From an uncultured Candidatus Saccharibacteria bacterium (lineage in GTDB: Bacteria; Patescibacteriota; Minisyncoccia; UBA6257; 1-14-0-10-44-23): DNA of 64,000 nt. The notes under the pieces were generated by a model. The model was not told the DNA's origin. It saw only the letters and a program-made list of their open reading frames with translations, and searched no databases. The stretch's first letter is position 1, and every line of letters begins with the position of its first letter. The DNA lies in contig CAZXKC010000005.1 in NCBI GenBank assembly GCA_964641225.1, forward strand, positions 32,134 to 96,133, in the 5' to 3' direction. Positions 252-15,718 of the stretch are shown here, one piece after another. The position numbers and the translations under genes were made by a program.

Positions 252-1007
252 CTACGTCAAAATTCGTGGGCCGTCAGCAGTAATCGCAATGGTTTTTTCG
301 AAATGCGCGCCCATGCTGCCATCTTTTGTCCCATAGCTTTCGTCATCGAGCTGGATCATTTCTCCTGTGCCGATTCCGACCATGGGCTCGATAGCAATAA
401 CCATGCCGGCGACAAGCTTTGGGCCCGTCCCCGCCTTGCCTTCGTTCATAACAGACGGCTCTTCGTGTAAATTCTTGCCAACGCCGTGACCGGTTAAGCC
501 TTTGACGACATAGAAACCATTTTTCTTAATAAAGGTGCCAATTGCGTTGCCGATATCGCCTACTGTGTTGCCTACTTTGGCTGCAGCTATACCGAGCTCA
601 AGCGCCTCTTCGGTCACGCTGATCAGTTTATGGATTTCCGGCGTTCCTTTGCCAACTACGACGGTAAAAGCCGAATCAGAGTACCAGCCGTTGATTTTCA
701 CGCCGCCGTCGATTGAGACAACATCTCCGTTTTTAATTTTGTACTTGCTCGGTACGCCGTGGACAACAACATCGTTAACCGATGTGCAGAGTGTGGCCGG
801 ATACGGCTTTGTTGCGCCTTTTGGTTGATACCCTAAAAATGCCGGCTCACCGCCTGCATCAATAATTAATTTTTTTGCCCGTGCATCAAGCTCGAGGAGT
901 GTCATGCCCGGCTTTATTTCTTTTTTCAGTGTGTCTAACACCGAACGCAAAATAGCGCCGGCTCGGGCGATTGTTTCGATTTCTGCTTGAGATTTAATTA
1001 ACGCCAT
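252..1007 (-). CDS. map: Methionine aminopeptidase type I
   Basis: 251-aa ORF with the canonical MetAP-I fold sequence, including GHGVG and the metal-ligand D/H/E residues. The reported end includes the TAG stop. Confidence 0.9.
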   Translation of the reverse strand: MALIKSQAEIETIARAGAILRSVLDTLKKEIKPGMTLLELDARAKKLIIDAGGEPAFLGYQPKGATKPYPATLCTSVNDVVVHGVPSKYKIKNGDVVSIDGGVKINGWYSDSAFTVVVGKGTPEIHKLISVTEEALELGIAAAKVGNTVGDIGNAIGTFIKKNGFYVVKGLTGHGVGKNLHEEPSVMNEGKAGTGPKLVAGMVIAIEPMVGIGTGEMIQLDDESYGTKDGSMGAHFEKTIAITADGPRILT

Positions 1008-1089: not shown

Positions 1090-1764
1090 TTATTTCAAAT
1101 GCTTCAAGATTTCAGCAAAAATGACCGGCGGCTTTTGATCGGCATTTATAGTGACAATATTCATTCCTTGTTTTCGCAACTCATCAAGAATTGGGAGCGT
1201 ACGTGTTGTGTATTGTTCGTAACGGGTTTTATACGTTTCAGGATTGTCGTCTTTGCGGACCTTGAGTTCACCCATGCAGATTGGACAATCGGTGACGGGT
1301 GCGTCGCTTAGAATCATCGTTGCGCAGGTATTGCAGGTGCGACGAATTGTGTTGCGACCTGCGGCAATCTCTGGCTTGATATCGAGATAGAACGCGTGGA
1401 CGTTTTCCGGCCCGTATAATTTTTTCAGTGTCGCAACGAGTCCGACGGTAGTTTTATTGCCAAAGGCTTCGTACATCGTGCGCGGTGAGCCTGAATAAAC
1501 GATGCTCATGCCCGCCTTGGCAATTTTCTTCACCTCTTTTTTAAACATCGAAAGAACCCAAGTTGGGCTGTTGAGGATTCCTTTTTCGTTCATCTCGCGC
1601 TCCTTTTTGATACGCGCATTTTCTTGATTTGCCGGATCATACAGAACTTGGCGGATTTGTTTGCCGCTGTCCCAGTGATAAAAGCCTTTGGTCCAGGCAA
1701 GTAAATTTGCCTGCGTGCCCTTGCCGCTACCCGGTGTGCCAAAAATAAAAACTGCTTGTTTCAT
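1090..1764 (-). CDS. adk: Adenylate kinase (long form with Zn-finger LID)
   Basis: N-terminal P-loop GTPGSGKGTQ and a LID region with CNTC...CPIC cysteines; 224 aa. Confidence 0.9.
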   Translation of the reverse strand: MKQAVFIFGTPGSGKGTQANLLAWTKGFYHWDSGKQIRQVLYDPANQENARIKKEREMNEKGILNSPTWVLSMFKKEVKKIAKAGMSIVYSGSPRTMYEAFGNKTTVGLVATLKKLYGPENVHAFYLDIKPEIAAGRNTIRRTCNTCATMILSDAPVTDCPICMGELKVRKDDNPETYKTRYEQYTTRTLPILDELRKQGMNIVTINADQKPPVIFAEILKHLK

Positions 1765-2064
1765 TGTGAATACGCTTAACTAATAATACAAATGGGCTCA
1801 GCAGATGCGCATACGAATAAGAAAAGGATAACAGGTTTCGAGAGGGTTGTAAAAAAGATATTGGGCCGCTCTAGCTATTGCCAGGCGGCCCTTTTTGCTT
1901 TTAAAAATCTTATTTTATCGATTTATAAGTACATTATACACCCGTTCGTGATTCTTGTCAATCCCCTGAAAACAACGTATTTAAGGGCTTTTTGAGGCGC
2001 AAAAGTAGCCCCGCCAGAGGCGGGCAAGCGGGCCTGGCGCAGTAGCGGCGCCCGGAAAGGTTCC

Positions 2065-2106
2065 TTCTAATACGTCTATCGTCCTCTAATACCTCTATTC
2101 CCTCTA
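2065..2106. repeat. Copy 1 of a ~42-nt repeated 3'-UTR element (TTCTAATACgTCTATcgtcCTCTAATACcTCTATTCCCTCTA)
   Basis: Seen directly in the sequence. It has an internal direct repeat TCTAATACNTCTAT and lies at/after the ndh stop codon. The second copy is at 12204-12244. Confidence 0.6.
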
Positions 2107-3390: not shown

Positions 3391-3520
3391 GCCCTTTAAT
3401 GTACTATGAGCGCGAATAGCGCACTATATTAAAAAATTGACGGTGTAGTCTGTATTACGATAACGATAGCTCAAGTGTAGCAGACTTTAGAAAAAAGCGC
3501 CGTCTGAATTTCGGCCAGAA

Positions 3521-3966
3521 ATTAGAAAGGGGTCCAGGCAGTGACGCGAGGACCCCTCGGGGGTGCCGCACGCGACTCATCAAGGTTGTGCGATGAGCGG
3601 CGGCGGGGAGAGAAGATTCTGGGTGTGAGGCGCTGTGTTGCGGGCGCAGCGCCTCACGGAGCTAAGTTGCGCGGACCGTCCGCGAACGGAGCTTGTGTGC
3701 AAGGAGGAGCCGCTTGCCTACCCTATGAGAGGAGATCTCGGGAGGTCGGGTGTGCTGCGCACTCCTCCTGCAGGAAACAGAAAGATTCAGGATGTGGGGG
3801 TCTCAGACCGGTCGGACCGCTTTGGGGCACGGCATTGTTGAATTTAGCCCTCGGAGGCCTAGACCAGCCGAGGGTCGGAATTCCAGTGCACTCAGTTTCC
3901 CGCGTGCTGTGCCATCTGCCGTTATACGGAACGATTAGGTCCTTTGTGCGAGACCCCCACGATTTC
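3521..3966. ncRNA. High-GC (~62%) non-coding island with extensive secondary structure; candidate structured RNA of unassigned class
   Basis: No credible ORF; those present are only R/P/G-rich artefacts. Hairpins include GTGAGGCGCTG...CAGCGCCTCAC (11 bp), GGGGTCC...GGACCCC and CCCTCGG...CCGAGGG. The two ends can pair (GGGGGTGCCGCAC / GTGCGAGACCCCC). There are short RNase-P-like strings (GGGGAGAGAAGAUUCUGGG, AACAGAAAG) but no complete P4. Confidence 0.3.
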
Positions 3967-4022
3967 TAAAGATCAGAATATAATTATACGCCTTTTTTAT
4001 AAGGCGTCAAGAAGCGCGATTT

Positions 4023-5159
4023 TTATCGAATTTCCGCGGCAAACTGTTTTTTTGTCTCTTCGATCACTTTATTTTGTAACGGCTCAATTTCTTCAACTTT
4101 GAGGGTTCGATCAGTGCTCCGATAGACGATTCGGTAGGCATAGCTGATTTTGTCCGCTCCGAACTTTTTCTCGTTTTCGTATTTATCAAGCAGTGTCACC
4201 TCTTCGGCCAAATCGCCGACAATGTCGCGGATTAGGTCAAAGTAGTTGTTTGGTACGAATGTCTTTGGTACGACAAACGAGATATCGCGCGTGATCGGCG
4301 GATACTTACTGACTGTTTTAAATTTGTTACCAAGTTTCAGTTGTTTTTTTACGCGTTCGTCAGCCGACCAGAAGAGACGGATGTCGGGCAAATCCATGCT
4401 GATGATTCCAAGTCGCTCGAGACCAAATCCAAAAGCCCAACCATTGTATCCTTCAATACCAAAATTTTTAAGTACTGATTTTTTCGGCATTCCTCCACCC
4501 AAAATTTCTATCCAACGATCCCCGACTTTAACCTCAACTTGCAGTGATGGATCTGTGTATGGAAATGTATCGTCCAAAAAGCGATATTCAACATCTTTGC
4601 CAAATAAATTTTCTACGATTTGCGAAAGGACTTTTTTTAGCTCATCAAGCGGCATAATGCCTTTGCTGTCCGGCTGTAAATACCAGGCACCAAATTGATG
4701 GAAGACATTCATGTGTCGACTGTCGATTTCATCCTTTCGGTATACCTTGCCATAGCAGACAGTGCCAACTGACTCGCCACGCGCAATCCGCTCTTGTATC
4801 TCCGGCTGATTCAAATAGTAATACCACATGACCGTATCATGTGTGCGCAAAATATTTTTTTCATCCACGTAGTAAGTATCAGACTTACTTCGTGCAGGAT
4901 GGTTTGGTGCGAAATCGAACAAGTCAAATGTGATAGAGGTCGGTACAATTTCTGGAATGACAATGTTGTCAAGATTTTTTAAAACATCTGTGGCTCGCGC
5001 CCGAGCAACGATTTCGTAGAGGGGGCTCTCCGGCGTCCGCGACAAATCCGGCATCGCCAAAAAGCGCTTCATGCGCAGGGCTTCGGGGTCGCTGCGACCT
5101 TCCAATACTTTTAACGCCTGTTTCTCTTCCGGTGCGTTTATGATGATTTCTTTGGGCAT
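4023..5159 (-). CDS. pheS: Phenylalanine--tRNA ligase, monomeric mitochondrial-like form (PheS catalytic core fused to C-terminal FDX-ACB anticodon-binding domain)
   Basis: Class II motif 2 (YRKDEIDSRHMNVFHQ) and motif 3 (AFGFGLERL) are present. There is no N-terminal coiled coil. An extra ~100 aa C-terminal has the FDX-ACB signature (DISFVVP...YAYRIVYRSTDRTL). Confidence 0.8.
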   Translation of the reverse strand: MPKEIIINAPEEKQALKVLEGRSDPEALRMKRFLAMPDLSRTPESPLYEIVARARATDVLKNLDNIVIPEIVPTSITFDLFDFAPNHPARSKSDTYYVDEKNILRTHDTVMWYYYLNQPEIQERIARGESVGTVCYGKVYRKDEIDSRHMNVFHQFGAWYLQPDSKGIMPLDELKKVLSQIVENLFGKDVEYRFLDDTFPYTDPSLQVEVKVGDRWIEILGGGMPKKSVLKNFGIEGYNGWAFGFGLERLGIISMDLPDIRLFWSADERVKKQLKLGNKFKTVSKYPPITRDISFVVPKTFVPNNYFDLIRDIVGDLAEEVTLLDKYENEKKFGADKISYAYRIVYRSTDRTLKVEEIEPLQNKVIEETKKQFAAEIR

Positions 5160-9874: not shown

Positions 9875-10243
9875 ATGGCAATGAAAAAAGGAAAAGCAGT
9901 GATGATCGGTGTTGGCGTTGCGGCTGCAGTCGCTGCAGCTGCATATTTTTTGACCGGTGAGCGCGGTGAAGAAAATCGGGCGAAAATTAAGGGCTGGATG
10001 AATGCTGCTAAAAAAGAGGTATTAGGCAAGATTAAAGACGTTAAAGAGCTGACTCAGGAGGGGTATGATGCAATCGTTGACGAGGTGCTTGCCCGCTATG
10101 AGGGTGCTAAAGATGCTATGCCTGAGGAATTGGAGAGTCTTAAGGAGGAGTTAAAAAGTCATTGGAGCAATATTTCCAAGCACCTTTCCGAAGGCGTACC
10201 AAGCGCTAAGAATGCGTCAAAAAAGCGTTCGTCACGAACTTAG
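9875..10243 (+). CDS. YtxH-like family protein
   Basis: 122 aa; N-terminal hydrophobic GVGVAAAVAAAAYFL then an amphipathic K/E-rich helix, typical of YtxH. Confidence 0.5.
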   Translation: MAMKKGKAVMIGVGVAAAVAAAAYFLTGERGEENRAKIKGWMNAAKKEVLGKIKDVKELTQEGYDAIVDEVLARYEGAKDAMPEELESLKEELKSHWSNISKHLSEGVPSAKNASKKRSSRT

Positions 10244-10340: not shown

Positions 10341-10667
10341 ATGAATATGAATCAAAAAAATGAGTGGGATGGTCCAGAGCGTCGTATTGATCAAGAAAAA
10401 CGAGACGATTTTGACTCGCTTATAAGTATGGCCTCTAAGAAGGTTTATTCAATTGAAGAAACCGGTGAGGAGTGGCAATCTGGCGCTACTATGACAACGA
10501 AGTTTGATTTTGAGAATCCGGATTCTCGAGACGAACAAAGAATCGTCGCTGGTAATACTCTTAAGGAATTTGCGCGGAAACACGGACCTGAAAATGTTCG
10601 CTTTGTTAAGGAGGAGGACGGAAAAGTGAGCGTGTATTTTCGAAAAGTTTTTGCTGAAAAACTTTAA
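10341..10667 (+). CDS. Hypothetical protein
   Basis: 108-aa ORF; no recognisable motif. Confidence 0.4.
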   Translation: MNMNQKNEWDGPERRIDQEKRDDFDSLISMASKKVYSIEETGEEWQSGATMTTKFDFENPDSRDEQRIVAGNTLKEFARKHGPENVRFVKEEDGKVSVYFRKVFAEKL

Positions 10668-11890
10668 TTTATAACGTTTAGAGCTTTCCCTACCTTTGCA
10701 AATGCAGCGACCGTGGTGTCGATGTGGGTTTTTGTGTGCGCAGCTGAGAGTTGGACGCGGATACGGGCCTTGCCGAGTGGAACGACCGGGTAGCTAAAGC
10801 TACGGACGTATACTCCTTCATCAAAAAGCTTGCGAGCAAATTCAGCTGAAAGTTTTTCGTCCATGAGCATGACCGGATTAATCGGATGTTTTCCGTCTCC
10901 ACCCATTTTAAAGCCGAGGGCAGTCATTTTTTCCCGAAAACATGTCGTGTTCTCGGCGAGCGTTGCACGGGCTGGTGCGAGTGTCGAGTCGAAGTTTCGG
11001 AGCGTCCACAAAGCCGTGCCGGCAATGACCGGCGCGAGTGCATTTGAGAAGAGTGAGGTGCGGGAGCGTTGACGAAGCCAGTCAATAATTTCTTTGCGGC
11101 CACTCGTAAAGCCTCCAGAAGCACCGCCCAAGGCTTTGCCAAAAGTTGAGGTGATGATGTCTACTCTGCCCATTACATTTTGCGATTCCACACTTCCCCT
11201 GCCCGCTGCGCCAAGAACGCCCGAAGCGTGAGATTCATCTACCATCACGAGTGCCCCATACTTTTGCGCCAGGTCGCAGATCTCTTTTAATTTTGCGGTG
11301 TCGCCGTCCATACTAAACACTCCGTCGGTGGCGATTAGTATGCGACGCGGTCGAGTCGTACCGTCTGATAGTTTCACTTCGGCGCCTTTTGAGGCGGTCT
11401 GCAGCATGGTTTCAAGTTCGGCCATATCTGCATGTTTGAAACGGAATCGTTCTGCTTTACAGAGGCGTACGCCGTCGATAATGCTGGCGTGATTGAGTTC
11501 ATCAGAGAGAATTGCATCCCCTTCGGAAAGAATAGTTTCAAAAAGTCCGGTGTTAGCATCAAAGCAAGAGGTGTACAAAATTGTGTCGTCGGTCTGTAAA
11601 AATTTTGAGACCTCTTTTTCTAATTCTTTATGAACCGTTGTCGTGCCGATAATAAACGGAACTGAAGCGGTTCCGTAGCCGTATGTGTCGAGCGCCTCAT
11701 GCGCAGCTTTACGGATAGCTTCACTTCCGGCCAGGCCGAGGTAGTTGTTGGCGCAAAAGTTAAGAAGCTTTTTGCCGTTTACAATAATCTCCGGGCCCTG
11801 ATAGCCCTCCATTGTGCCTATGTCTTTGTAGGTGCCCGCATCTTTGAGGCTTTGAATATCTTTTTTAAATTGATCTTGTAAGGGATACAT
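10664..11890 (-). CDS. kbl: 2-amino-3-ketobutyrate CoA ligase (glycine C-acetyltransferase), PLP-dependent alpha-oxoamine synthase
   Basis: Near-colinear with E. coli Kbl (NFCANNYLGL, ILYSSCFDAN, ISDALNHASIIDG, ATDGVFSMDG, GTLGKALGGASGG; PLP lysine in TFGKALGG). Start moved to the internal ATG at 11888-11890 (MYPLQDQ...), which matches the Kbl N-terminus. Confidence 0.85.
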   Translation of the reverse strand: MYPLQDQFKKDIQSLKDAGTYKDIGTMEGYQGPEIIVNGKKLLNFCANNYLGLAGSEAIRKAAHEALDTYGYGTASVPFIIGTTTVHKELEKEVSKFLQTDDTILYTSCFDANTGLFETILSEGDAILSDELNHASIIDGVRLCKAERFRFKHADMAELETMLQTASKGAEVKLSDGTTRPRRILIATDGVFSMDGDTAKLKEICDLAQKYGALVMVDESHASGVLGAAGRGSVESQNVMGRVDIITSTFGKALGGASGGFTSGRKEIIDWLRQRSRTSLFSNALAPVIAGTALWTLRNFDSTLAPARATLAENTTCFREKMTALGFKMGGDGKHPINPVMLMDEKLSAEFARKLFDEGVYVRSFSYPVVPLGKARIRVQLSAAHTKTHIDTTVAAFAKVGKALNVIN

Positions 11891-11982
11891 AGATAAAAAT
11901 CGTAACATAGAAGCGTACCTAAAACGAGTGAGAGCCAGGATTCCCGAAGGAATTCTGGCTCTCTTGTGCGGCCTCTTGTTGC

Positions 11983-12174
11983 CTACCATGTTGGTGGCTT
12001 AGGAGGGTCACATGGAATCATTGCGAGCCAGTAGATGAGGGCTATGAAGGGTACGCCGAGACACAGCGCCAGCGCAACCTCCCACAACTCCAATCCCCAC
12101 AACTTTTTCATGGTTTCCTCCGATTGAGATAGTATTCTTAGAATAGCACTCTTTATTATATTTGTCAATAGCAA
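11983..12174 (-). CDS. Small hydrophobic hypothetical peptide (possibly 42 aa from internal start at 12111)
   Basis: ORF between kbl and tdh; the C-terminal 40 aa are strongly hydrophobic (LALCLGVPFIALIYWLAMIP). GC is higher than in the neighbouring genes. Confidence 0.3.
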   Translation of the reverse strand: MLLTNIIKSAILRILSQSEETMKKLWGLELWEVALALCLGVPFIALIYWLAMIPCDPPKPPTW

Positions 12175-12203
12175 AAAAGCTCCTTAAATAAGGGTTTTTA
12201 GAC

Positions 12204-12244
12204 TTCTAATACCTCTATTGGCCTCTAATACTTCTATTCCCTCT
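12204..12244. repeat. Copy 2 of the ~42-nt repeated 3'-UTR element (TTCTAATACcTCTATtggcCTCTAATACtTCTATTCCCTCT)
   Basis: Near-identical to 2065-2106. It overlaps the stop codon of tdh. Confidence 0.6.
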
Positions 12245-13166
12245 TCTTCAGGTTCTTCAGCATCACCTTCGTCATCTTGGCGAGGTCAAATTCGTGTTTC
12301 CAGCCCCAGTCTTTGCGGGCTTGTGCGTCATTAATAGATTTTGGCCAGGAGTCGGCGATTTTTTGGCGGTGGTCGGGTTTATAGGTTACATCTACCGGAA
12401 CTATTTTATTTATTTCCTTTGCGAGTTCGTCGGCACGGAAGCTGATGGCGGCCATGTTGTAGCTCGTGCGGATTTTAATTTTGCTGGGCGGGGCATCCAT
12501 TAATTTGATCGTCCCGCGGATCGCGTCGTCCATATACATCATTGGGAGCACGGTGTCTTTTTTAACAAAACATTCGTATGAGCCTGTTTTGAGGGCTTCA
12601 TGGAAAATTGCGACTGCAAAATCAGTTGTCCCCCCACCCGGCTGTGCCTTCCAGCTAATCAGTCCTGGGTAGCGTACTGAGCGGACATCAACTCCGTATT
12701 TTAAGAAATAGTATTGGCAGAGTAGTTCACCGGCGACTTTAGTTACGCCATAAATTGTGGTCGGCTCAAGAACAGTTTGCTGGGGAGTTTTATTTCGGGG
12801 CGTGGTTGGTCCAAACGCAGCAATTGAGCTTGGCCAAAAGACGCGCATTTTGTATTTTACGGCTAGATCTAGAACAATCTTAAGGCCGTTCATGTTTACC
12901 TCCCACGCTAAATTTGGGTTTGCCTCCCCTGTTGCAGAAAGCAGTGAGACTAAATGAAAGACGGTATCAATGTTATATTTTTTGACGATGTGTTCAAGTG
13001 CGACGGCGTCAGTCATTTCTACAACTTCAACTGTTCCCTTCCAGCCTTTTGGCGGCTCGCGACGATCAAGTGACACGACGTGTAAAACTCCTTTCTTCTT
13101 CTGCAAAGCCGGTACGAGCTCTGAGCCAATTTGTCCGAATGCTCCGGTAACGAGAATATTTTTCAT
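12234..13166 (-). CDS. tdh: L-threonine 3-dehydrogenase, extended-SDR (GalE-like) type
   Basis: TGAFGQIGSEL NAD-binding motif and YGVTK catalytic Tyr-x3-Lys. Start taken at the internal ATG at 13164-13166 (MKNILVTGA...). Confidence 0.75.
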   Translation of the reverse strand: MKNILVTGAFGQIGSELVPALQKKKGVLHVVSLDRREPPKGWKGTVEVVEMTDAVALEHIVKKYNIDTVFHLVSLLSATGEANPNLAWEVNMNGLKIVLDLAVKYKMRVFWPSSIAAFGPTTPRNKTPQQTVLEPTTIYGVTKVAGELLCQYYFLKYGVDVRSVRYPGLISWKAQPGGGTTDFAVAIFHEALKTGSYECFVKKDTVLPMMYMDDAIRGTIKLMDAPPSKIKIRTSYNMAAISFRADELAKEINKIVPVDVTYKPDHRQKIADSWPKSINDAQARKDWGWKHEFDLAKMTKVMLKNLKKRE

Positions 13167-13249: not shown

Positions 13250-13440
13250 ATTTATTTCACATTTTTTGGGGAAGCAGGTGGAACTCCTGCACAGTACCGC
13301 TACGGTTATAGTCCGAGCGCCAGAATGTGATTAGTCTCACTGTCTTAATCCTCGAGTAAGGATGCCAGGCGGATTCGGTGCTCTCCCCAGAACCCGAAAC
13401 CGACCACCCCTCTATCTCGAGATGGGTGTTTTTATTTTTT
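13250..13440 (+). promoter_or_regulatory. Structured 5' leader (~190 nt) ending in an intrinsic terminator immediately upstream of the 13451 ORF; candidate riboswitch/attenuator of unassigned class
   Basis: An extended -10-like TGgTACACT lies upstream. The leader has GGGGAAGCAGG...ACGGUUAUAGUCCGAGCGCC...CCCGAAACCGAC motifs and ends in hairpin CACCCCTCTATCTCGAGATGGGTG (13405-13428) plus TTTTTATTTTTT. Confidence 0.35.
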
Positions 13441-13450
13441 ACTTTTAATC

Positions 13451-15718
13451 ATGCCGGAGTTACGACAACCACGATTTGAAGATGAGGGAGCTGCAACAAC
13501 TACTTCAGAGCGGCCTTTTAGTGGTGAAACACTCGAAGAAGAATTGGAGCGCTTAGAGCAGGAGAAAGCGCAAAGAGAATTAGAGGATCGTTTAGAGCAA
13601 GAACGACTTGAAGCAGAAGAACGTGCTGCTGAGGTTGCCGAAGAAGAGGAACGGATTCAGGCGGAAGATATCTCTCTTATCGAAGCGCTTGGTTCGGATA
13701 AGGTTGAAGTTCGATTTGTTGATCCGGCTGATAAGGCAACGTATCCGCAAGCCAGCTCAGATGGACCAAGCCACCAGGATAAGTCTGGGGTTCCCGTAGC
13801 AAGTCTGCCGCAACGTTTTATAGATGGTAAAAGTCAGAATCCAGACGGTACGTTTGTGGTTGATGAGCTCATGCGCTTAGGTAATGCATCGCCTGAGGGT
13901 CTTGCTCGCGCGCAAAAGCATGACAATGATCTCAATACTCTGCAGTATCATATTTCGGAACCCTTCAAGTCATTTAATGGTGATGGAAAAATGTGGAGGA
14001 CGATCACTCGCGTTAATGCTAACGGAGAAGAGGTTGCTCGAAATTATGAGATTGCGCTTCCTAAAAAGGAAGCAGAGGAAGATGATAATGGAGACCTGCT
14101 TCCGGGTGGTACCAGTGAAGGATTAGGAAATGCGCTCGATTCAGAGGACGATGAGGTGGTCGAAGATGGTTTGCTGGATCCTAATTCGGACGGGCTCGAA
14201 TCCTTGTGGGCCGCCCAAATTTCAGAGCTCGAAAAAAGTAAGGCCTTGAAAGATGCAGAGACTCAGCGAGTCACTGCGCTGAATGTTTCGCCTACTTTAA
14301 GTGCTACAGAGCCTAATGTTTCTGTCATAGCTGCGCAGATGCCGGTTTCTGAAATTTTTGCCACTGAGCCAGGCGTTTCGGCGCAGCCTGAGGCTATAAA
14401 GACACCATCGTTATTTACTGAATCCTTCGCCAGCGCACCATCTGCAGTCAATACGACCGAAAATTTTGCTCTAGAAACAGATTCATTCACTCTTGAGGTC
14501 GCAAACCTGTCTACGCCGGAAGATTCTGTTATTTCATCTCTGGAGCATTTTGCCAATACAGAACCAGTTGTTAGTCATGAGGCTGCGCCTGGGGCTATTA
14601 AGGTATCATCTCACGAGCTACCAGTAGCTCGTGGAGCAGTTGATCTTGCAGTTGAGGTATCTGCGACAACGAGTGAAATAATTTCAGAGCCGGTAGCTCT
14701 TGTTCCAGAAATTTTAAGTGAAGAGAGTGTCGCGGAAAATTCAATAGCAACAGATGCAGCTTCAGAGATTAGCAATGAGTTTACGATTAATTTTTCGTCA
14801 GGTGATTTATTTAAGCCTGAAATCGTCCTGGCTGAAACGATGACGAACGGCGCGCAGACGCATACAGAGACATTTGCGCAGCCCGTCTTTGAAACACCGA
14901 CGGTTGAATTTGATGTAGCTCCTGAGGAGGCTATTACAGAATCTGCACCTGTTACAGAGCTTCACGAGGACGCAATGCCCTCCATTGAATCAGCCGCAGA
15001 GGTTGCTTCTATTCTATTTCCTAAAGAAAAATCAGTGCCTGTTGAAGTCGTAGCTGTCGCGCCGGAAATTGCCCCCACTCAAGTTGTAGCTATCCCGGCC
15101 GCACCGAGAGAGGCAATTACGCTGACGTTTAAAAAAGATATCGCGCAACCGACTGTTGCGCGCATAGAAGCAACGAAACCTAAGTCCGTTGAGGTTTTGA
15201 AAGATGAAGTGCCAGCGGCTAAGGCAAAAGAAGTGGTGCCCCCCCCAGCAGAGAAGGCAGAACCAATTCGGCTTGTTCGGAATGAAGCAGCCCCTATTCC
15301 AGTTGCCCGTAAGGCTGAACAGAAACATGTTGATCAATCGCCGAATGTACCTTCGGTAGAGAAATCAGCAGGTAGAATTTTGAAATTTGAAGATGCTGTT
15401 GCTAATAAAGAGCGCCGCTCCCCTTCGCTAACACCTGAAATATTAAAAACACCCGTTCAGAAAATTTCGAATCCGCTTGTACGATCAAAAGTCCCAGAGG
15501 CTGTGCAGCGTCGACAGGAGCGTGAGGAGCTCCCGACTTTTGCTTCTTCAGTTGTTCGGGCTCGAGAGGTTGCGCGAGTTACCCAAGAGGTGCACAATTT
15601 CAAGCCGCGTAGTACGGCTGCTCTGTCTGACATAATCTCACAAGAAACTCGAGAGCGGCGTATTCTAGACATAGAAGACCTACCGGAGGTTGGAATCCGG
15701 ATGCTTCGTCGAGCCTAA
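13451..15718 (+). CDS. Large acidic low-complexity protein (755 aa), function unknown
   Basis: Long uninterrupted ORF in an AT-rich genome, E/A/S/T/V/P-rich with an N-terminal E/R coiled-coil-like region. No signal peptide or TM segment. Confidence 0.55.
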   Translation: MPELRQPRFEDEGAATTTSERPFSGETLEEELERLEQEKAQRELEDRLEQERLEAEERAAEVAEEEERIQAEDISLIEALGSDKVEVRFVDPADKATYPQASSDGPSHQDKSGVPVASLPQRFIDGKSQNPDGTFVVDELMRLGNASPEGLARAQKHDNDLNTLQYHISEPFKSFNGDGKMWRTITRVNANGEEVARNYEIALPKKEAEEDDNGDLLPGGTSEGLGNALDSEDDEVVEDGLLDPNSDGLESLWAAQISELEKSKALKDAETQRVTALNVSPTLSATEPNVSVIAAQMPVSEIFATEPGVSAQPEAIKTPSLFTESFASAPSAVNTTENFALETDSFTLEVANLSTPEDSVISSLEHFANTEPVVSHEAAPGAIKVSSHELPVARGAVDLAVEVSATTSEIISEPVALVPEILSEESVAENSIATDAASEISNEFTINFSSGDLFKPEIVLAETMTNGAQTHTETFAQPVFETPTVEFDVAPEEAITESAPVTELHEDAMPSIESAAEVASILFPKEKSVPVEVVAVAPEIAPTQVVAIPAAPREAITLTFKKDIAQPTVARIEATKPKSVEVLKDEVPAAKAKEVVPPPAEKAEPIRLVRNEAAPIPVARKAEQKHVDQSPNVPSVEKSAGRILKFEDAVANKERRSPSLTPEILKTPVQKISNPLVRSKVPEAVQRRQEREELPTFASSVVRAREVARVTQEVHNFKPRSTAALSDIISQETRERRILDIEDLPEVGIRMLRRA

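Follow-up and report, generated by a model that had tools for sequence, protein, structure and literature searches.

In the trp leader of Bacillus, termination is controlled by TRAP, a ring-shaped multimer whose sites consist of 9–11 (G/U)AG triplets separated by 2–3-nt spacers (a period of 5–6), which lie within the 5′ leader and overlap the antiterminator. HutP, a hexamer that acts on the Bacillus hut operon, requires UAG triplets in two groups of three, spaced by 4 nt and placed ahead of the genes under its control. On DNA, ribbon-helix-helix-type arrays are represented by ParR-parC, the omega heptads, MetJ boxes and MraZ repeats; direct-repeat operator arrays overlap or closely flank the promoter that they regulate, and keep their phasing. 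CRISPR arrays have repeats of 23–50 nt with unique spacers of similar length, and CsrA/RsmA sites are GGA motifs in hairpin loops. To our knowledge, next to nothing is known of how CPR bacteria regulate their genes. TIGR-Tas arrays, which have 36-nt units, two 8–9-nt spacers, box C/D-like edge and loop repeats and an adjacent gene for a Nop-domain Tas protein, have been reported in parasitic bacteria including Patescibacteria (PMC12045711).

Here we describe a repeat array that is present in two copies within a 64-kb stretch of DNA (the window, by which we mean the whole stretch that was analysed). The flanking proteins assign it to the CPR/Patescibacteria, with Yanofskybacteria, Microgenomates and Harrisonbacteria as the nearest named relatives. 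Each copy consists of five TAGAGG-like hexamers on the minus strand, with start-to-start steps of 9, 9, 10 and 9 nt (three spacers of 3 nt and one of 4 nt), and spans 43 nt.

The array resembles a TRAP tract in its short UAG/GAG repeats, its short variable spacers and its unstructured RNA beside an intrinsic terminator, but it is composed of five hexamers (five UAG triplets) at 9–10-nt steps and is located in a 3′ UTR; no antiterminator/terminator alternative of the TRAP kind is predicted, and there is no TRAP gene among the approximately 55 ORFs of the window. With the HutP sites it shares UAG repeats, fixed short spacers, single-stranded RNA and a potential for terminator control, whereas its UAGs are 9–10 nt apart (6–7 nt between triplets), the full hexamer is conserved, and the array lies 3′ of the gene. 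Direct-repeat operators and centromeres are similar in having short direct repeats near a promoter, a spacing of about one helical turn or shorter, and conserved cores with free spacers; here, however, the distance between array and promoter varies by 100 nt, the 10-nt step moves, and a cognate regulator gene is not nearby. There is also a parallel with “mobile promoter” segments and minisatellites, in that a segment of about 100 nt with a terminator and promoter is found at two gene ends and has a 9-nt tandem repeat inside it, but the cross-species conservation is specific to the hexamer, and the position relative to the stop codon and hairpin is fixed. TIGR arrays likewise alternate conserved and variable segments with a short period, but the present array has five hexamers with variable parts of 3–4 nt. 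A TIGR-Tas array was ruled out on the basis of this 6-nt core with its 3–4-nt spacer and of the absence of a Nop-domain Tas gene among the approximately 55 window ORFs.

Two arrays at the stop codons of ndh and tdh

The preliminary description of this DNA reported a duplicated element at 2065–2106 and 12204–12244. Both copies are indeed present, with an internal tandem structure, and go far beyond what is expected by chance. They are identical at 38 of 42 nt (90%; regions 2064–2105 and 12203–12244), and form the longest two-copy repeat family (D6) within the window. Copy 2 is unchanged in two independent Logan assemblies (L022/L023), and is therefore not an assembly artefact. The motif TCTAATACNTCTAT, with up to two mismatches, has 7 matches against 1.4 expected, a number that was reached in none of 100 shuffles. 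Its four exact matches are the tandem 14-nt half-sites noted previously. These sites do exist, but a 14-nt half-site with a period of 19 is two hexamers plus a spacer and is valid only inside the window genome; the true repeat unit is the hexamer. As RNA, the repeat may be written (UAGAGGNNN)5 or (UAGAGGUAU)5, with five UAGAGG-type sites, and its composition is approximately 75% purine with 2–3 C per 43 nt. No further chain of at least three hexamers occurs in the window. The window and related loci together (208 kb) contain one more hexamer chain, which is a chance match within a coding region. The features of both loci are listed in Table 1.

Table 1. Features of the two array loci, in window coordinates.
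Feature	Position	Strand	Basis or remark
Array copy 1	2064–2106	-	TAGAGG gaa TAGAGG tat TAGAGG acga TAGACG tat TAGAAG
Array copy 2	12203–12245	-	AAGAGG gaa TAGAAG tat TAGAGG ccaa TAGAGG tat TAGAAG
ndh, NDH-2-like pyridine nucleotide-disulphide oxidoreductase, 428 aa	2104–3390	-	PF07992 (Pyr_redox_2), 1e-36
Two hairpins in a GC-rich stretch that begins 8 nt past copy 1	1999–2055	-	Folding
A/T-rich spacer (TCAAAAAGCCCTTAAATA...)	1962–1998	-	Gap-free alignment to the spacer after copy 2; orthologue in relative A
Sigma-70 promoter TTGACA-17-TATAAT, 12/12	1933–1961	-	Consensus match
Strong hairpin + T6	1851–1891	-	Fold z = -5.7
adk (adenylate kinase), next gene after cassette 1	1090–1764	-	
map	252–1007		After adk
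tdh, epimerase-family, L-threonine-dehydrogenase-like, 310 aa	12234–13166	-	Pfam; ATG start as in P0001
Weak hairpin + T6 (CCCTTATTTAAGGAGCTTTTTT), starting 8 nt past copy 2	12173–12194	-	Folding
Sigma-70 promoter TTGACA-17-TATTCT, 10/12, TG extension	12140–12168	-	
42-aa hydrophobic ORF (MKKLWGLELWEV...DPPKPPTW), cargo of cassette 2	11983–12111	-	
Strong terminator hairpin (15-bp arms) + T-run, closing cassette 2	11920–11963	-	Fold z = -4.8
kbl, glycine C-acetyltransferase	10664–11890	-	NCBIfam 564 bits, cutoff 460

The minus strand is the coding strand of the genes that adjoin both arrays. In copy 1, the TAG of the first hexamer is the stop codon of ndh (2104–2106). In copy 2, the first hexamer provides the K-R codons of tdh and the TAG of the second hexamer is the tdh stop (12234–12236); relative to the TAG stop, the array starts at 0 nt or −9 nt. 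Counting the two arrays of relative A (see below), the start lies at the stop codon in four cases out of four. The placement at the stop codon or 3′ UTR of two minus-strand dehydrogenase-type genes, as originally claimed, is thus correct, with both TAG stops lying inside the arrays. The gene assignments also hold. Pfam identifies the ndh product as an NDH-2-like Pyr_redox_2 protein, and tdh encodes an epimerase-family enzyme that is conserved beside a confirmed glycine C-acetyltransferase gene. The tdh product is very probably an SDR-type threonine dehydrogenase, because in relatives the gene overlaps with the confirmed kbl.

The gap between the array and the first terminator-type hairpin is 8 nt in all three intact arrays (the two window copies and the ndh array of relative A, described below). 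For both genes, the array constitutes the entire untranslated stretch from the stop codon to this hairpin, up to the 8-nt linker. A chance duplication, in the sense of two copies without a positional pattern, had also been considered; the pattern found is strict and is kept in a second species.

Three other accounts of this position were tried and rejected. A general stop-codon context was ruled out, since the array is missing from all 17 other TAG-ended genes of the window. It is not a protein-coding repeat: ndh and tdh end in different hexamers and frames, which excludes a C-terminal peptide common to both products. A read-through or frameshift product was ruled out because the extension is not kept between the two organisms, relative A being open in frame past the stop and the window closed after 2 codons.

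Shared layout of the two loci

The order downstream of both arrays, on the same strand, is an 8-nt linker, one or more hairpins, an A/T-rich spacer, a promoter, and a short unit closed by a hairpin; adk-map at locus 1 and kbl at locus 2 come only after this cassette. From the array to the −35 element the two loci align without gaps, provided that the GC hairpins behind copy 1 (60-odd nt) are excluded. The similarity is greatest in the array itself (38/42), is 14/18 in the next 18 nt, which are the first 18 nt of the A/T-rich spacers, and fades beyond, such that the spacers as a whole are identical at 21 of 34 positions.

At locus 1, the second hairpin after the array (2028–2008) is followed by a T-rich tail and is terminator-like. 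The GC-rich stretch that contains it is partly orthologous to that of relative A and is missing from the copy 2 locus. The unit that lies past the promoter and is closed by the T6 hairpin is approximately 80 nt long and has no ORF, and the start of adk lies 87 nt beyond this hairpin. At locus 2, the hairpin after the array (core CCCTTATTTAAGG, with a T6 tail) is weak, and its orthologue in relatives A and E is a better terminator. The cargo ORF is preceded by a GGAGG ribosome-binding site at 12117–12121. It has no homologues among 5.8 billion proteins, and Pfam gives no match either for this ORF or for the 191-aa cargo ORF of relative A. We note that the 42-aa ORF could encode a small membrane protein, a toxin-like peptide or a leader peptide.

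The distance from the array to the −35 element is 34, 102 and 133 nt in the three intact arrays. No array accompanies the six other strong promoters of the window, the one before groESL among them, which rules out a general promoter-upstream element. The 10 kb between the two copies contains housekeeping genes and tRNAs, and neither terminal inverted repeats nor target-site duplications were found around either cassette; an island bounded by direct copies was ruled out on these grounds. Among the approximately 55 ORFs of the window there is no recombinase or transposase and no gene for an RNA-binding regulator.

Searches in sequence collections and comparison with known families

A genome scan for the half-site pair across 185,579 species representatives, a set from which the source genome is absent, returned only (TATTAGANG)n minisatellites or coding repeats. 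These minisatellites are perfect 9-nt repeats with a very wide range of bacterial and archaeal hosts, among them Erwinia, Xenorhabdus, Calothrix and Nitrososphaeraceae. They have no relation to the array, and can mislead pattern searches that rely on motifs of short period. In the JGI metagenomes, two anchored patterns designed to exclude satellites gave 0 matches and 2 chance matches respectively, and in viral contigs the 67 matches of the hexamer pattern were perfect 9-nt repeats, either coding or satellite, with nothing array-like among them. Phage and plasmid collections contain no similarity to either cassette, and an origin from these sources was ruled out on this basis. Rfam 15 gave nothing at either copy at the gathering score, nor in the locus of relative A at E ≤ 1.

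Several known element types were compared with the array, some of which had been put forward in the preliminary description. A REP-like repeat does not fit: a palindrome is absent, the RNA and DNA are unstructured (z about 0), and REP/BIME elements were ruled out by the lack of an inverted repeat, with folds of −0.6 and −4.6 kcal/mol (z of +0.2 and −0.6); as to copy number, two copies in 64 kb were observed. The suggestion of a miniature mobile element finds neither terminal inverted repeats nor target-site duplications, and matches in no collection; there are two syntenic loci in 64 kb. A MITE was likewise rejected, because both loci are syntenic in relative A rather than at non-homologous sites, and the same architecture was found in no collection. 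For the proposed sRNA target, complementary RNA is not above chance level; the candidate antisense partner at 10013–10026 (an 11-nt complement) is within chance when all array 11-mers are counted. A CRISPR array was excluded by the period, which here is 9–10 nt, and a CsrA/RsmA-binding RNA by the occurrence of GGA in some units only and by the unstructured array. The array fits no described family.

The array in related genomes

Three genomes share the gene order tdh-X-kbl ... murL-pheS-like-ndh-adk-map, so that the loci can be compared site by site. Relative A (GCA_964549935.1) is the sole related genome with the array. Its ndh is 72% identical to that of the window, and its TAG stop opens the sequence TAGAGG acga TAGAGG tac TAGAGG gat TAGAGG taa TAGAAG, of 43 nt. 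This is followed by 8 nt, a strong terminator hairpin, GC hairpins, a TTGACA-17-TATAAT promoter, a stretch of approximately 500 nt, a terminator, and adk. In the tdh array of relative A the spacers are in the same order as in the window (gaa, tat, acga, tat), but a 20-nt GC hairpin interrupts this array, in which two hexamers have decayed. Past the array come a terminator and promoter as in the window, and then a 191-aa GC-rich ORF.

At ndh, relative C (66% identity) has the stop context TTG GGA TAG A as in the window, without the array. Relative B (64%) has a TGA stop and a 113-nt spacer, and relative D (63%) a TAA stop and a 48-nt spacer, in both cases with neither array nor promoter. A further ndh relative (68%; JGI sample 3300071358) has a 582-nt spacer between ndh and adk. 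At tdh, there are two lineages without the insertion, in which tdh and kbl overlap; one of these ends in ...CAT GAA TAG. In relative E, tdh has a TAA stop followed by 57 unrelated nt and then by the terminator-promoter module (CCCgTATTTCAGGG...CTTTTTTGG...TTGACAAAA) with other cargo, without an array. The tdh/kbl junction of relative B contains an IS256-type transposase.

These comparisons bear on whether the array is a relic of recombination or part of a mobile cassette, in which small cassettes integrating at the 3′ ends of genes would bring a new stop codon with them, and the hexamers at the cassette edge would serve as arm-type or transposase-binding sites. At both loci the array is at the upstream edge of inserted DNA, the cargo is different in each genome (an 80-nt unit, an RNA-like stretch of about 500 nt, a 42-aa ORF and a 191-aa GC-rich ORF), and there are IS fragments at the tdh/kbl junction in relatives B and E. 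However, the other end of the cassette has neither an inverted nor a direct repeat, the window has no recombinase or transposase among its approximately 55 ORFs, and phage and plasmid similarity is lacking. Moreover, the loci are syntenic rather than dispersed, and relative E carries module and cargo without the array, which shows that the array is not needed for insertion. We consider this origin quite improbable.

We note separately that the tdh/kbl junction is an insertion hot spot (window 11890–12234; L029 6981–7900; L034 255–1637; L107 1813–2696; L024 ~6923). Depending on the lineage it contains an overlap, the 42-aa ORF cassette, the 191-aa ORF, an IS256-type transposase, or a 132-aa ORF with an IS1595-like zinc-ribbon transposase fragment. 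The 20-nt GC hairpin, CCTGCCTGCCGGTAGGCAGG, is identical in the decayed tdh array of relative A (L029 6983–7002) and past the ndh stop of relative B (L034 11301–11320; duplicates in L030–L032 and L035), and is missing from the window. It has the look of a minute hairpin family of the clade, mobile or REP-like. Other GC hairpins are clustered directly after the arrays. The stretch of approximately 500 nt in relative A (L032 11495–12010, plus strand) is GC-rich (55%), has no ORF, folds with z = −3.0 and has no match in Rfam; at the same place relative C has another GC-rich, structured-looking stretch (L105 1620–1868).

Evidence for constraint on the hexamers

The identity at four-fold synonymous sites between the window and relative A is 34% in ndh, 52% in tdh and 58% in adk, and the value for ndh indicates that neutral sites are saturated between the two. 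Aligned collinearly, the two ndh arrays are identical at 21 of 43 positions. They consist of the same two units (18 and 19 nt) in opposite order, and after swapping the units, an alignment that was picked after inspection of the data, the identity is 39 of 43. Unit A (TAGAGGgaaTAGAGGtat) matches A′ (TAGAGGgatTAGAGGtaa) at 16 of 18 positions, unit B (TAGAGGacgaTAGAcGtat) matches B′ (TAGAGGacgaTAGAGGtac) at 17 of 19, and TAGAAG is the final hexamer of the ndh array in both species. The differences between species amount to 3/13 nt in the spacers and 1/30 nt in the hexamers (p = 0.075), statistics that come from few independent arrays, at two loci in two species. As a test for a plain minisatellite, the period was found to be 9 with one 10-nt step, and within the arrays 3/60 hexamer positions and 5/18 spacer positions are off consensus (p = 0.014, a small sample). 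All 15 hexamers of the three intact arrays are within one mismatch of TAGAGG, and the hexamer consensus, the five units, the 43-nt length and the 8 nt to the hairpin are kept in both species.

This comparison provides moderate evidence for selection on the hexamers, since their consensus and number, the length of the array and the 8-nt gap are kept at ndh, while the interrupted tdh array has decayed. The loss of two hexamers from the interrupted tdh array of relative A shows the rate of decay when an array is unmaintained. It also means that the function of the array, if any, is dispensable at that locus.

The same observations can be read without any function. The array would then be a decayed 9-nt minisatellite, generated by slippage at the tdh stop context (GAATAGA) and carried to the end of ndh by intergenic duplication via microhomology (GGATAGA), with gene conversion and unit turnover keeping the copies alike. 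Satellites of the 9-nt TAGAGG type are common in unrelated genomes, and native GAATAG and GGATAGA stop contexts occur in array-less relatives. Units have been swapped between species, one array has decayed, the copies within a genome are more alike than orthologues, and there are only two loci, 10 kb apart, in a tiny clade. What speaks against it is that synonymous sites are saturated, and yet 15 of 15 hexamers have at most one mismatch with a consensus that is the same in both species. Concerted evolution in the absence of selection should homogenise the spacers too and let the consensus drift. The 43-nt length and 8-nt distance to the hairpin have been kept as well. We regard an array without function as a genuine possibility, though a doubtful one.

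The window organism and relative A are found together in the same samples. Their adk genes (window 1090–1764, L032 12073–12750) are 91.5% identical in amino acid sequence and 58% at four-fold sites, compared to 72% and 34% for the adjacent ndh, which suggests either later recombination between co-occurring lineages or strong codon constraint. Given the co-occurrence and the unusually similar adk, part of the conservation could reflect later exchange.

History of the loci

The comparison between genomes allows the order of events to be inferred. The overlap of tdh and kbl was the ancestral state, and a terminator-promoter module with variable cargo then entered between the two genes. The array arose between the tdh stop and the older terminator, in an ancestor common to the window organism and relative A. 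A copy of the array-terminator-promoter module subsequently reached the native TAGA stop context of ndh, some 10 kb distant. Thereafter, units were swapped and turned over, hairpins were inserted, and one array decayed, whereas five hexamers and 43 nt were retained in the others. The two window copies have stayed, or been made, alike (38/42). An alternative in which the KKRE* end of tdh is native, and copy 1 is a plain copy of tdh codons, is weakened because the only relative with that end also carries the array; the native part is GAATAG alone. On this history, the locus documents the stepwise splitting of a compact, translationally coupled tdh-kbl operon.

Possible function in DNA or RNA

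The orientation of the array to transcription is always the same. It keeps its distance to the upstream gene and to the terminator, but not to the promoter. The 10-nt step (the 4-nt spacer) is placed differently in the two species, and helical phasing is thus lost. The array is unpaired in predicted folds (z about 0), with the exception that the CCUCU of hairpin 2 pairs with one hexamer in a single MFE fold and not in the centroid. No alternative antiterminator pairing of the array was consistent across the four loci.

One function that would operate at the level of DNA is an operator or upstream site, at which a cooperative protein that binds direct repeats (ribbon-helix-helix, MraZ/AbrB-like or OmpR/PhoB-like) would regulate or insulate the downstream promoter, with the five hexamers spaced about one per helical turn. 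Both window arrays and the ndh array of relative A are upstream of consensus promoters in the same orientation, a hexamer with a 3–4-nt spacer is like known operator arrays, and the hexamers are conserved while the spacers are free. Nevertheless, the distance to the −35 element varies (34, 102 or 133 nt) and there are hairpins in between, and with a mean period of 9.25 bp and a 10-bp step that moves, the sites are unphased. The promoters match the consensus at 12/12 and 10/12 positions and are not overlapped by the sites; being at or near consensus, they should have no need of an activator. In addition, other strong promoters have no array, and relative E has the promoter module without one. 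An operator therefore seems unlikely.

A role in the transcript is favoured by the combination of gene-fixed position, lost phasing, strong promoters, the array-less module in relative E, and unpaired RNA. Our best reading is that the array is a protein-binding 3′-UTR element, which was among the original proposals. More specifically, we assign a probability of about one in three to an unstructured 3′-UTR platform, whose five UAGAGG sites would be bound by a multimeric RNA-binding factor acting on the adjacent terminator or 3′ end. The array would work in the transcript as an unstructured, purine-rich, C-poor 3′ UTR, and its sites would be occupied by the factor in the manner of TRAP or HutP; a less likely occupant would be the 30S subunit, via the GAGG cores. 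When bound 8 nt before the terminator stem, the factor could set the efficiency of hairpin formation or the stability of the 3′ end, and the outcome would be to tune the levels of ndh and tdh mRNA and the read-through to adk-map and kbl. Neither a binding factor nor an alternative antiterminator was found, so the effect on termination or 3′-end stability is one that we infer. Further observations go against the platform: the hairpin after copy 2 is weak in the window genome, one orthologous array has decayed, and the array is limited to two loci in 64 kb and to two species.

It is conceivable, although this is a speculative extension, that the array represents the first 3′-UTR protein-binding repeat platform in CPR/Patescibacteria, in which a factor on five stop-anchored UAGAGG sites governs a terminator 8 nt downstream. 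If true, it would constitute a post-transcriptional switch in regulator-poor bacteria, co-controlling two NAD-linked dehydrogenase genes together with read-through to the neighbouring operons. A conserved, stop-anchored array near terminators would be a concrete, testable cis-element in CPR, and could serve as bait for a binding factor. Its general importance is probably small, because the array is seen only at two loci and in two closely related, uncultured species.

Other features of the window

The window contains several further features of note. An AdoCbl-II (B12) riboswitch at 13257–13330 on the plus strand (56 bits, with a gathering score of 36.5) precedes an ORF of 755 aa at 13451–15718 on the same strand. 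This ORF has no Pfam or NCBIfam match, and may encode a B12-related transporter or binding protein that has gone unrecognised.

On the minus strand, 4023–5159 encodes a single-chain PheRS-like protein of 378 aa, consisting of a class II core and an FDX-ACB anticodon-binding domain. Its top NCBIfam matches are to “PheS-related mystery ligase SrmL” and to mitochondrial-type PheRS, both under the cutoff, and relatives A, B and D conserve the gene at this position. Between this pheS-like gene and ndh there is a gene-poor gap of approximately 630 nt (3391–4022, minus strand), behind an 11/12 consensus promoter at 4010. A similar gap is present in relatives (L032 9361–10001); it has no match in Rfam and may hold a non-coding RNA.
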